43,444 nt of DNA from positions 1-43,444 of the forward strand of contig CAMOLD010000001.1 in assembly GCA_946618395.1 (NCBI GenBank). Direction: 5' to 3'. This stretch comes from an uncultured Clostridia bacterium (lineage in GTDB: Bacteria; Bacillota; Clostridia; Oscillospirales; CAG-272). Made by a program: the position numbers and the translations under genes. The notes below the pieces were generated by a model. It was not told where the DNA came from. It saw only the letters and a list, made by a program, of their open reading frames with translations, and ran no database searches. Below are positions 11,876-25,633 of the stretch, piece by piece. Each line of letters starts with the position of its first letter. Position 1 is the first letter of the stretch.

Positions 11876-12562
11876 TTGGCAACAAACGGATTGAATCGCA
11901 TCACGGATAAAATCATCGCCGCGGCAAAGGAACAGGCAAACGGAATCCTTGCGGCGGCGGAAGAAGACTGCGCGCGCATTTTGGCGGAATATAACGAAAA
12001 AGCCGAAAAGATTCGCGCCGCTCTCGCCCGTGAGATAGAACAAAAAACGCAGGATCAACTTGCGCGTGCCAAATCTTCTGCCGCCATGGCGGGAAGAAAT
12101 TTGGTTGGAGAAGCGCGCAGTCAGCTGATCGAATCGGTCTTCCGGGATGCGTTTGAGGAAATTGAAAAGAAACCGGAAACCGAATATATCAACCTGATCG
12201 TGGGGCTGTGCTCCGCGGCGGCGGAAGAAATTTTCACCACCGAGGAAAAGAACCTTGCCGTTTACGGCGCCGAGGAAGAAGCGGTTGCCGAACAATGCGA
12301 GATTCTTTTAAATGCGGCGGACCGTAAAAAAATGGGCAATAAGATCCTTGCCGGCGTTCAAAAAGCGCTTTCGGGAAAAATCAGCCCGGAGAATTTGAAA
12401 AAGGTCACGCTCGCCGAAGACACCGTCAACATTCGCGGCGGCGTTGTTCTGCGGTATGGGGAAGTGGAGTCCAACTGCTCGTTTGAAATGCTCTTTTCGC
12501 TTTTGCGGCGCGAGCTGGAAACCGATGTCAGCCGCATGTTGTTCGCCGGCGAAGAGGCTTGA
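11876..12562 (+). CDS. ntpE: V-type ATPase subunit E
   Basis: TTG start 8 nt after GAAAGGAG, just past ntpK; the upstream part of the ORF-track frame overlaps ntpK. LNRITDKIIAAAKEQANGILAAAEED.. helical N-terminus with a globular C-terminus. Confidence 0.8.
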   Translation: MATNGLNRITDKIIAAAKEQANGILAAAEEDCARILAEYNEKAEKIRAALAREIEQKTQDQLARAKSSAAMAGRNLVGEARSQLIESVFRDAFEEIEKKPETEYINLIVGLCSAAAEEIFTTEEKNLAVYGAEEEAVAEQCEILLNAADRKKMGNKILAGVQKALSGKISPENLKKVTLAEDTVNIRGGVVLRYGEVESNCSFEMLFSLLRRELETDVSRMLFAGEEA

Positions 12563-23110: not shown

Positions 23111-24409
23111 GTGAAATCCGTTTTCAAGTTGATGGTATTTTTGTTATCTGGCTTGCTCTTGCTTGCGGCGCTTCCGGTCTCGGCCCTTGCGGCAGAGGAG
23201 AAGGGGATTCTTTCGCAGGGGGTATCGGTTCTCGCTTCCGGAATGGACGTTGCCGTATCCGGCATGGTGGGGAACGATATTCCGTTTTGCGCCGATGATT
23301 TTGAAAAAGGGCTGAACCTTTCCGAGGTCCGCTATCTCACCTTCAAAAGCGTCCCGTCAAGCGCCGACGGTGACCTATTGCTGGGTTCTTCGCGCATTGC
23401 GGCGGGGCAAAGCGTTTCGGCGGCAACCTTGACGGCGGTTGTCTTTCATCCGGCAAGCGAGGAGGTCGCGCAGTCTTCGTTCACCTTCACCGTCAACGGC
23501 GGAAATATTCCGCTCACCTGCCGGCTTTGCTATCGCTCGGGCGCAAATTCGGCGCCAAGCGTCGGGGTGGCTTCGGCGCTCTCCTTGAACTGCATGACCT
23601 ACCGGGACGTCGATCGTTACGGAACGCTTTGCGCTGTTGATCCGGAGGGGGATGAAGTGCGGTATGAAATCATCACGCCGCCGCAAAAGGGAAGCGTTAT
23701 GCTCACCGATCCCGCCAAGGGCACCTATGTTTACAGACCCGGCAAAGGCTATATCGGGAGCGATTCATTCACCTACGTCGCGCGGGATTCCTACGGCAAT
23801 TATAGCCGCACCGAAAAGGTCAATCTGCGCGTGGAGGCGGCAGGAACCTCCGTTCAATATGTGGATGTTTCCAAGGAGCAAACGGTATCCGCCATTGCGG
23901 TCACCTCGGCGGGCATCATGAGCGGTTCCCAGCTTGGCGGCAAATATTATTTCTATCCCGAAGAAGAGGTCAGCCGGCTCGACTTTTTGGTCATGGCAAT
24001 GAACGCCGTTGGCATTTCGGAGGTCCCGGATTGCGAAAAAACGAGCTTTGCCGATGACGAAGAAATTCCCGCAACCATGAAAGGAACTATTTCGGCGGCG
24101 GAAAAACTGGGCATTCTCTCGGTTTTCGCAAACGGCGAAGAGGAAAACCGTTTTGCGCCCAAGGAGCCGGTCACCCGCGCCGAGGCGGCAGTCATTTTGG
24201 AAAAACTGCTCAATGCCCGGCCGGTGGCAAACAGCATTCCCACCTTTTCGGATACGTTGCAAATCCCCGTTTGGGCACAGGACGCGGTTTTCACGCTGGG
24301 GTCGCTCGGAATCATGACGTCCTCCGACGGCAATGTCTCCCCGCTTGCAAAACTCACCCGCGGCACAACGGCGGAATTGCTGGCGGCGGTCATGCGTTAC
24401 CGCGCGTAA
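23111..24409 (+). CDS. Secreted cell-wall protein: cadherin/Ig-like repeat region plus three C-terminal SLH domains
   Basis: Signal peptide MKSVFKLMVFLLSGLLLLAALPVSALA. DPEGDEVRYEIITPPQKGSVMLTDPAKGTYVYRPGKGYIGSDSFTYVARD (cadherin-like/tandem-95-type). Three SLH-like repeats (YVDV.., FADD..VTRAEAAVILEKLL, FSD..LTRGTTAELL). Confidence 0.8.
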   Translation: MKSVFKLMVFLLSGLLLLAALPVSALAAEEKGILSQGVSVLASGMDVAVSGMVGNDIPFCADDFEKGLNLSEVRYLTFKSVPSSADGDLLLGSSRIAAGQSVSAATLTAVVFHPASEEVAQSSFTFTVNGGNIPLTCRLCYRSGANSAPSVGVASALSLNCMTYRDVDRYGTLCAVDPEGDEVRYEIITPPQKGSVMLTDPAKGTYVYRPGKGYIGSDSFTYVARDSYGNYSRTEKVNLRVEAAGTSVQYVDVSKEQTVSAIAVTSAGIMSGSQLGGKYYFYPEEEVSRLDFLVMAMNAVGISEVPDCEKTSFADDEEIPATMKGTISAAEKLGILSVFANGEEENRFAPKEPVTRAEAAVILEKLLNARPVANSIPTFSDTLQIPVWAQDAVFTLGSLGIMTSSDGNVSPLAKLTRGTTAELLAAVMRYRA

Positions 24410-24460
24410 ATAAATAAAAAAGAATATTCCCATTGCTTTGATGGTTTGATAGAAATTTTG

Positions 24461-24507
24461 AAAAGCACACGTTTTTGCATGGCAAAACAACGTGTGCTTT
24501 TCTTTTC
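24461..24507 (+). terminator. Rho-independent terminator after the SLH-protein gene
   Basis: AAAAGCACACGTT-15 nt loop-AACGTGTGCTTTTCTTTT. Confidence 0.75.
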
Positions 24508-24595
24508 AGTTATAACGCTTGCTTTCTAAGCAGTTGTGATTTAAGCCTGTGCCTGAAAGGAATGAGATAGCCTTCTCTTGCAAGAACTTTTTTAC

Positions 24596-24702
24596 GTGCC
24601 GAAGGCACTCATCACGTCCGAAGGACACATCACGCGCAAAGCGCTCATCACTTGCCCGCAGGGCAAACATCACTCATCGTAGCGATTTCGATCGCTACGA
24701 TG
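24596..24702. repeat. Array of five different perfect palindromes separated by the invariant heptamer WCATCAC (minus strand: GTGATGW)
   Basis: GTGCC-GAA-GGCAC TCATCAC GTCC-GAA-GGAC ACATCAC GCGC-AAA-GCGC TCATCAC TTGCCC-GCA-GGGCAA ACATCAC T CATCGTAGCGAT-TTCG-ATCGCTACGATG. Confidence 0.85.
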
Positions 24703-24716
24703 CCGCGCCTCTTTTT

Positions 24717-24974
24717 TTACTCACCATTTCGTTTTTTTCGTTCCAGCTCAATCGCGTCGGCAACAATTGCCAGCAAAACGGCAACCAAAATGGCGGCAAG
24801 GTAATCATAAAACGCCATGGACCAGGTATCAAAAGCCAGCAAAACGTCTGTCTGCCGGTCCACAAGATAGGAGATCAAAATAAAAATTCCTTCCAAAATG
24901 ACCAGCGGAAGCGTCAGCCGCAAATAGAGAAGCGCCGAGCGCCCGGGGATGTAGATAGAAAATTTTCGTTTCAT
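24717..24974 (-). CDS. Small two-TM membrane protein (hypothetical)
   Basis: 85 aa, GGAGGATGA SD, two hydrophobic helices (LTLPLVILEGIFILISYLV; YLAAILVAVLLAIVA). Confidence 0.6.
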   Translation of the reverse strand: MKRKFSIYIPGRSALLYLRLTLPLVILEGIFILISYLVDRQTDVLLAFDTWSMAFYDYLAAILVAVLLAIVADAIELERKKRNGE

Positions 24975-25348: not shown

Positions 25349-25633
25349 ATGAATACGCTTGAAAACAACAATCTTTTAATGGAAGAAACCGTGTTTTGCG
25401 AGGGGTTACAACTGCAAAACCGGTTTTGGCAGGACCTTTCCACCCGACAGTTTCATGTTTCGGTCACCTGCGGAAAAGAGTCCGCCTCTGCCGCGCTCGG
25501 GAAAGATCCGCTCTTCGCCGCCGATTGTTACCGGAAAATCCGGGACGGCGGAGTCACGCCCTGCACGCTGGAGGATATCGTCTGCGACCTGACCAAGCTG
25601 GAAAAAAACGAAAAAACGCTTTACAAAATGTGA
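25349..25633 (+). CDS. Hypothetical 94-aa protein
   Basis: GAAAGGAAG SD. Soluble, with no recognised motif. Confidence 0.5.
   Translation: MNTLENNNLLMEETVFCEGLQLQNRFWQDLSTRQFHVSVTCGKESASAALGKDPLFAADCYRKIRDGGVTPCTLEDIVCDLTKLEKNEKTLYKM

Follow-up and report, generated by a model that had tools for sequence, protein, structure and literature searches.

GUGAUGW-linked mini-hairpins between two convergent genes of an Oscillospirales genome: a probable solo copy of a Gut-1-type repeat

The window considered here, i.e., the whole 43,444-nt stretch of DNA that was analysed, comes from an uncultured Clostridia bacterium. Two convergent genes within it, one for an SLH/Big_9 surface protein and the other for an 85-aa predicted membrane protein, are separated by a gap of 307 bp (24410-24716), and in that gap lies an array of short hairpins which begins 15 nt past the stop codon of the 85-aa gene (Table 1). 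Gap and distance are as originally described. So too are five perfect stems, unit lengths of 20, 18, 18 and 22 nt, and a T/A/T/A alternation at the first base of the plus-strand heptamers, all of which hold on reading of the sequence. On the minus strand the order is a 12-bp hairpin (24702-24675), an A, and then four units, each consisting of GUGAUG(U/A) followed by a perfect 4-6 bp triloop hairpin that is closed by a C-G pair. The C(UUCG)G tetraloops which had been suggested for two of these hairpins are a coincidence of the letter string, since a UUCG tetraloop would break the perfect stems; the loop in question is a UUC triloop with a closing C-G pair. The window has ten copies of the heptamer GTGATGW, versus 4.8 expected; every one is on the minus strand, and four of the ten are inside 65 nt. 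By our own arithmetic, four at 10-16 nt spacing have a chance expectation of ~1e-8 per 43 kb. An Rfam scan of the whole window (1-43444) gave no family at cut-off, and no tRNA, riboswitch or leader.

Table 1. Features of the convergent gap and its flanks, in positions of the window.
Feature	Position	Strand	Remarks
SLH/Big_9 surface protein gene	23111..24409	+	convergent
Insertion, ~284 bp	24422..24705		strain-group-specific; replaces loop and 3' arm of ancestral terminator; boundaries approximate, to a few bases
Non-array remainder of insertion	24422..24592		contains new bidirectional terminator; without homologue in fetched loci
Bidirectional intrinsic terminator	24460..24510		z -5.0 on +, -4.8 on -
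Canonical left array	24593..24673	-	R1 model full-length match and Rfam Gut-1 match
Left array, first half: L0 GTGATGT, H1 TTGCCC-TGC-GGGCAA, GTGATGA, H2 GCGC-TTT-GCGC	within 24593..24673	-	
Left array, second half: GTGATGT, H3 GTCC-TTC-GGAC, GTGATGA, H4 GTGCC-TTC-GGCAC	within 24593..24673	-	ends at 24596
Unit GTGCC-GAA-GGCAC, TCATCAC	24596..24615	+	hairpin 24596-24608, heptamer 24609-24615; sequence reading
Unit GTCC-GAA-GGAC, ACATCAC	24616..24633	+	hairpin 24616-24626, heptamer 24627-24633
Unit GCGC-AAA-GCGC, TCATCAC	24634..24651	+	hairpin 24634-24644, heptamer 24645-24651
Unit TTGCCC-GCA-GGGCAA, ACATCAC	24652..24673	+	hairpin 24652-24666, heptamer 24667-24673
T, then CATCGTAGCGAT-TTCG-ATCGCTACGATG	after 24673	+	hairpin 24675-24702
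Linker heptamer GTGATGA	24609..24615	-	motif scan
Linker heptamer GTGATGT	24627..24633	-	motif scan
Linker heptamer GTGATGA	24645..24651	-	motif scan
Linker heptamer GTGATGT	24667..24673	-	motif scan
12-bp perfect hairpin CATCGTAGCGAT-CGAA-ATCGCTACGATG	24675..24702	-	at canonical members' intrinsic-terminator position; no U-tract
Ancestral terminator remnant, 5' half (TAAAAAAAGAGGCG)	24706..24719	-	overlaps stop codon of 85-aa gene
85-aa predicted membrane protein gene	24717..24974	-	no Pfam match; 3'UTR now runs through array

An identical array is found in four contigs that encode an identical 85-aa protein, i.e., that belong to the same strain group. A fifth contig, L123, encodes that identical protein as well and is without the array. 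It reads TAAAAAAAGAGGCG-AAAACA-CGCCTCTTTTTTG-TTTTTTATTTACG, which is a single bidirectional terminator linking the two stop codons. In four related species, with 85-aa orthologues that are 73-84% identical and with synteny kept, the gap is 30-55 bp and contains one terminator and no array. The supposition of a conserved element at this locus is thereby lost: the region is absent from L123 and from all related species examined, an outcome which the original prediction had itself set against a cis-element. Going by these comparisons, the array arrived on a strain-specific insertion of ~284 bp that broke the native bidirectional terminator and supplied a new one. This new terminator, the 'normal' one that had already been noted in the gap, is a genuine bidirectional one (z about -5 for either strand), came with the insertion, and now ends both of the convergent transcription units. 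The array sits between the stop codon of the 85-aa gene and this sole remaining terminator.

The mobility of solo arrays is put forward from this single filled/empty site pair (window group vs L123), which is without a clean target-site duplication. The non-array 174 bp of the insertion gave no relatives in a homology search; the array part alone has relatives elsewhere. As there is no clean duplication, and as that 174-bp part has no relatives, the event could have been one of illegitimate recombination instead of transposition. A further palindrome, TCTTGCAAGA at 24575-24584, sits in the relative-less part of the insertion, and no role was found for it.

Folded as plus-strand RNA (z -4.15), or as DNA of whichever strand (z about -5), the array has its five hairpins both in the minimum-energy structure and in the centroid. 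Minus-strand RNA (z -2.0) has another minimum-energy structure, with alternative G-U pairings competing. The array does not have the makings of an intrinsic terminator, i.e., a GC-rich stem plus an immediate U-tract, as its four small hairpins run into GUGAUGW, and the 12-bp hairpin is flagged as a terminator only via its tail, AGUGAUGUUU. A script for family-wide terminator detection was too strict (19/123), and its result is left out here.

The original prediction took the architecture to be undescribed. It matches, in fact, the plan of the Rfam Gut-1 RNA (RF01706), which is that of a longer hairpin and then at least three short hairpins with a ~7-nt GUGA-type linker. A permissive search of the intergenic region (721 nt searched), run along the lines that the original prediction had proposed, gave Gut-1 as the sole significant match (24584-24675, minus strand, 32.6 bits, E 1.9e-4), with one unit modelled as an insertion and with the score below the Gut-1 gathering cut-off of 50 bits. 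In the Gut-1 seed alignment, GUGAAAU or GUGAUAU separates the hairpins that come after the longer one. In some seed members an inverted partner array, its linkers AUAUCAC, follows at a short distance downstream, and some are in tandem, ~240 nt apart. The window array shares with Gut-1 the longer first hairpin, the three or more short hairpins, the C-G-closed UUC-type loops, the 7-nt GUGA-type linker, the strand orientation, and an origin in gut-metagenome Clostridia. It differs in having GUGAUG(U/A) rather than GUGAAAU or GUGAUAU as its linker, and in having one more unit.

A second line of evidence is a covariance model, R1, which was built from 16 GTGATGT-type arrays of other loci and organisms, with the window excluded. 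R1 matches the window at full length at 24593-24672 on the minus strand (75.1 bits, E 5e-20), the next best match in the window reaching 8.6 bits. Aligned to R1, the TTGCCC hairpin is the canonical H1 and the GTGCC hairpin the canonical H4. By BLAST, the array is 81% identical to L141 over 80 nt. Arrays scoring above the Gut-1 cut-off are detected by R1 as well, at identical coordinates and with 36-61 bits, so that the two models cross-detect both ways. There is, accordingly, one superfamily of the Gut-1 type, of which the window array is a GUGAUGW-linker variant. The hairpins, whose stems differ between units, are not wholly unrelated in sequence as had been described: three of them (GTGCC-TTC-GGCAC, TTGCCC-TGC-GGGCAA and GCGC-TTT-GCGC) are present also in arrays of other organisms.

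How widespread are such arrays? Relatives were scanned, as had been proposed. A genome scan for three GTGATGW gave 9 true arrays, i.e., ones with heterogeneous palindromic spacers, among the 120 matches listed, the rest being mostly simple or coding repeats. All of the true arrays among these matches are from Clostridia metagenome-assembled genomes (Ruminococcaceae, Oscillospiraceae, Acutalibacteraceae). A metagenome scan for a degenerate linker plus one CTTCG hairpin found at least 120 loci in gut and rumen samples. The hosts of the family are gut and rumen Clostridia (Oscillospirales).

At least 132 unique arrays were parsed, with 3-6 linkers each. Their four main linkers are GTGAAAT (48 arrays), GTGATGT (33), GTGATAT (27) and GTGAAGT (22), and with ATGATGT as a further type there are at least five. 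Arrays with GTGAAAT, GTGATAT and some with GTGAAGT pass the Gut-1 cut-off (50-82 bits), and GTGATGT arrays do not. The Gut-1 family, that is, is wider than its Rfam model, comprising five or more linker types of which the GUGAUGW type is missed at cut-off. The Rfam model consists of three left-array hairpins only; it is without the inverted right array, the terminator/promoter frame, and the tRNA-CCA and PF05635 links that are described below.

A complete member consists, in order, of an intrinsic terminator, a (G)AACGATGT-type start, 3-5 mini-hairpins, a centre, and an inverted right array, with an outward sigma-70-type promoter at the end of a subset; some members drive an Avd-like PF05635 gene. 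The mini-hairpins are separated by a lineage-specific heptamer, (G/A)TGA(A/T)(A/G)(T/A). Left arrays have GTGA-type linkers and mostly 11-nt spacers. Among the 43 unique double elements listed, which span five linker types, the majority linkers of the left and right arrays are exact reverse complements of one another in 38 and depart from this by one base in the remaining five. The 5' start (e.g., GATGT-GTTCC) is complementary to the centre (GGAAC-ACATC), a complementarity which likewise tracks linker type. Pairing of left with right linkers unit by unit was considered and rejected: they match by type only, with no register-specific covariation, and minimum-energy folds pair them just as they would any inverted repeat.

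Loops are TNC or TNNC in left arrays and GNA or GNNA in right arrays, with a closing C-G pair in more than 90%, the seed patterns of the scans biasing loop counts towards TTC. In a set of 67 different 11-nt units, drawn from many organisms, 93.7% of stem cells are paired versus 53% in shuffles, and two-sided changes number 112; the test is partly circular, its arrays having passed a prior filter for palindromy in most spacers. The original idea of selection on hairpin structure together with a conserved linear heptamer is borne out to that extent. Hairpin order varies among otherwise similar elements, and duplicated units are present, which together suggest a shuffling of units via their identical linkers.

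Complete members commonly begin directly after the CCA end of tRNA or tmRNA genes. Among the 132 arrays listed, 21 have a tRNA gene no more than 200 nt upstream, 20 of these being co-oriented with it, and some arrays follow the ends of 5S/23S operons. For solo arrays, the nearby upstream ORF is co-oriented in 37 cases and opposite in 9. Many solo arrays begin right after a stop codon and hence must be transcribed.

A survey in which 951 ORFs around arrays were clustered yielded a sole recurrent neighbour protein, the other clusters being housekeeping genes or spurious antisense ORFs. This neighbour (PF05635/TIGR02436) is a four-helix-bundle protein of ~115 aa that is related to the 23S rRNA intervening-sequence (IVS) protein and to Avd, and its gene starts just past the right array in 11 of the 131 array loci listed. 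Upstream of all five PF05635 proteins sampled (22 loci) the order is the same, running from the CCA end of a tRNA or tmRNA through a terminator and a double array to a promoter. The terminator upstream of these genes has the consensus ..CTTTTGTC-nnnn-GACAAAAG..T-run, and the sigma-70-like promoter abuts the last linker or is found just downstream. The clade is very large: 8000 candidates were scored, of which the best 120 are all at 74-83% identity and yet in separate 90% clusters. Most of its members are on very short contigs, which suggests a context that is multi-copy or hard to assemble. An association with arrays is not reported in the literature that was searched for PF05635, for S23p and for the four-helix-bundle protein.

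In one group of loci (L263-L270, e.g., L263:1199-2526), the terminator, double array, promoter and PF05635 gene, along with an overlapping gene for a 198-aa methyltransferase, form a cassette of ~1.3 kb. Copies that are 97-99% identical are found downstream of at least four different tRNA or tmRNA genes, with the left junction exactly after CCA and the right end reading ...CACGTCTTACACA, next to which is the native terminator. The methyltransferase (L263:1853-2449), which is co-transcribed with PF05635, matches PADLOC mad2 (mads_2; E 1.7e-26) and, going by that match, may be a defence-related cargo; a PADLOC search with the PF05635 protein gave no match. Tandem units made up of a terminator and a double array occur elsewhere (L259-L262; L272:560-1200, 1740-1960), with three double arrays around two tRNA-Val genes and one PF05635 gene, in assemblies that break or contain Ns. 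These tandem units match the 240-nt tandem copies of the Gut-1 seed alignment.

Against this background the window contains a left array alone. It has no PF05635 homologue, no tRNA, and no centre, right array or promoter of a complete cassette, nor did a motif scan find any right-type linker on the array's strand. The explanation that we prefer overall, and consider probable if by no means assured, is that the window array is a solo left-array copy of a Gut-1-type repeat, brought in as a passenger by the ~284-bp strain-specific insertion. As such it is probably transcribed within the 3'UTR of the 85-aa gene, where its hairpins could at most provide some incidental shielding of the mRNA 3' end.

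As to how such elements might work, each unit would act through nucleic-acid structure, i.e., as a C-G-closed hairpin of 4-6 bp with a TNC or GNA loop, and the heptamer would be recognised, putatively, by a trans-acting factor that co-evolves with it. The sole candidate seen for this factor is the PF05635 protein. That it binds the array we purely infer, and the presence of its gene at so few array loci (11 of the 131 listed, as above) counts against it as the binding partner. Units presumably have been duplicated, lost and shuffled by slippage or by recombination between identical linkers, with elements spreading or being exchanged between intergenic sites in what would be a REP/BIME-like lifestyle. 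No mobilising enzyme was found in ~1 Mb of flanks across 169 loci.

Is the active form then an RNA? Gut-1 was first described from human-gut metagenomes only and with no known function, and was rated as certainly an RNA on the basis of covariation (Weinberg et al. 2010, PMC2864571). In the literature searched, it is mentioned only in that 2010 description (PMC2864571). In keeping with this original sRNA reading, the array could be a functional structured RNA, its GUGA strand transcribed as a 3' trailer or 3'UTR. The hairpins, with GUGAUGW linkers left single-stranded, would then either be a platform of multiple sites by which an RNA-binding protein is titrated or recruited, or protect 3' ends from exonucleases. 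A multi-site protein-binding element had been among the original suggestions, and may exist as RNA or as DNA. Co-orientation of arrays with upstream tRNA genes and ORFs, together with the many arrays that lie in 3'UTRs directly past stop codons, favours a role as RNA, as does a sigma-70-like promoter in L272 that reads straight into an array. Consistent too is the position of the window array between a stop codon and the only terminator left.

Other observations favour DNA, or else count against an RNA of the classical, one-stranded kind. G-T (G-U) stem pairs are nearly absent and as rare as A-C pairs, at 11 versus 11 of ~1490 in double elements and 7 versus 17 in a first set, counts that are too few for assigning a strand. 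Loop type follows the orientation of the unit and not the strand, a symmetry at the level of units. Left and right arrays would offer a binding protein different RNA sequences. Canonical elements have a terminator ahead of them and a promoter behind, the opposite of how an RNA gene is laid out. The great stability of C-GNA-G loops as DNA mini-hairpins points the same way. In addition, the five-hairpin fold is not the minimum-energy one for minus-strand RNA, and the array is dispensable here, as seen from its absence from L123, with its identical flanking gene, and from the related species. A functional RNA seems to us, on balance, to be on the unlikely side.

A more ambitious version of the preferred reading takes the cassettes as its starting point. 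Gut-1-type arrays would be the cis module of unrecognised mobile cassettes which insert exactly at the 3' CCA ends of tRNA and tmRNA genes and which carry their own terminator, outward promoter and Avd-like PF05635 gene. Heptamer plus mini-hairpin would then be a recognition module for a pentameric PF05635 protein, perhaps together with a recombinase or reverse transcriptase supplied in trans, and solo arrays such as the one considered here would be non-autonomous derivatives. This is speculative, and unlikely as it stands. The 23S rRNA intervening sequences carry a PF05635 (S23p/four-helix-bundle) gene, and Avd is an accessory protein of diversity-generating retroelements (DGRs). Array family members resemble the former in carrying a PF05635/TIGR02436 gene, in attaching to stable-RNA genes (tRNA, tmRNA, 5S/23S operon ends) and in having inverted repeats alongside. 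They differ in that arrays are downstream of the RNA gene rather than inside it, and the window copy is without a PF05635 gene. Unlike with DGRs, no reverse transcriptase, TR or VR was seen.

Alternatively, the heptamers might be double-stranded DNA sites (of an operator, iteron or arm type) for a sequence-specific protein, with a nucleoprotein complex assembling upstream of the outward promoter and with the window holding an orphan cluster of such sites. The heptamers are 18-22 bp apart, direct within arrays and inverted between them. Paired arrays agree in linker type (38/43), and there is no position-specific linker pairing. Furthermore, the last right linker abuts the -35 box in 8 of 66 strand views, compared with 0.5% in controls, and in all five PF05635 cassettes the promoter is likewise abutting or just downstream. 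Left unexplained are the perfectly palindromic spacers of variable sequence, their C-G closure, and their loop types. No DNA-binding gene, moreover, is consistently linked, with PF05635 only a putative candidate. We view sites of this sort as an improbable explanation for the array.

A REP/RAYT- or IS200/IS605-type element, i.e., one acting as single-stranded DNA and moved by a Y1 HUH transposase, was among the original suggestions. C-GNA-G loops are of a very stable DNA mini-hairpin type, and the GNA and GNNA loops of arrays, closed by C-G on one strand, are of this kind. The intergenic location near terminators and the differences in presence between strains would suit such an element as well. 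Enterobacterial REP/BIME elements and the REPINs of Pseudomonas are, similarly to arrays, short intergenic hairpin repeats near the 3' ends of genes that are transcribed into 3'UTRs, that exist in single and inverted-pair forms, and whose presence differs between strains. Gut-1-type arrays, in contrast, are without GTAG, their stems are variable between units and not conserved between copies, only the linkers being conserved, and all units of an array share one orientation, head to tail. No RAYT was found, nor any Y1 transposase or TnpB in the window or in ~1 Mb of flanks across 169 loci, by use of a query with which a single-copy RAYT could be missed. The 284-bp insertion, lastly, is without a TnpA or TnpB ORF. 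An origin by this route is very improbable. Pneumococcal BOX elements resemble arrays in being modular and intergenic, in containing internal units whose number varies, and in having a strong predicted secondary structure. Their modules have a conserved sequence of 45-59 nt, and no kinship in sequence with arrays was seen.

That the array serves the 85-aa or the SLH gene as a conserved, dedicated attenuator or cis-regulatory 3'UTR element, as the start of the array so close past the stop codon of the former (15 nt) might suggest, is refuted by the absence of the array from L123, with its identical protein, and from the orthologous loci of four related species, and the same kind of array adjoins unrelated genes and tRNAs, so that next to no weight is left for it. 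For annotation of the window, the array accordingly is not a conserved regulator of its neighbours, having arrived on the 284-bp strain-specific insertion.

What appear to be new here are the GUGAUGW subfamily, the double-array frame with its matched linkers, the presence or absence of copies by strain, and the links to tRNA-CCA ends and to PF05635. Copies of the array come and go between strains, and the Gut-1 motif is one half of a terminator-array-array-promoter module that is linked with the 3' ends of tRNA and tmRNA genes and with PF05635 genes of the Avd-like kind. Should these links hold, then they would be the first testable leads to a role for Gut-1, which has been listed in Rfam since 2010 as an RNA of gut metagenomes only.

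Three minor observations may be added. In the window at 25349-25633 there is a 94-aa ORF with no Pfam match, whose position, flanked by the NrdR and 85-aa genes, is the same in all related loci (94-96 aa). Next to the orthologue of the SLH gene, one related species has a gene for a large serine recombinase (L132:4289-5255; Resolvase/Recombinase/Zn_ribbon_recom/DUF4368), in a position that is occupied in other relatives by a homoserine O-succinyltransferase gene. Viral contigs, subjected to the same scan as the metagenomes, yielded 1 match in 2.9 million and so little sign of a phage-borne family. That one match (L257:~12015-12350; IMGVR_UViG_3300018493_002828) is a complete GTGAAAT double element which follows a terminator, and its last linker is abutted by a TTGAAA-18-TATAAT promoter.
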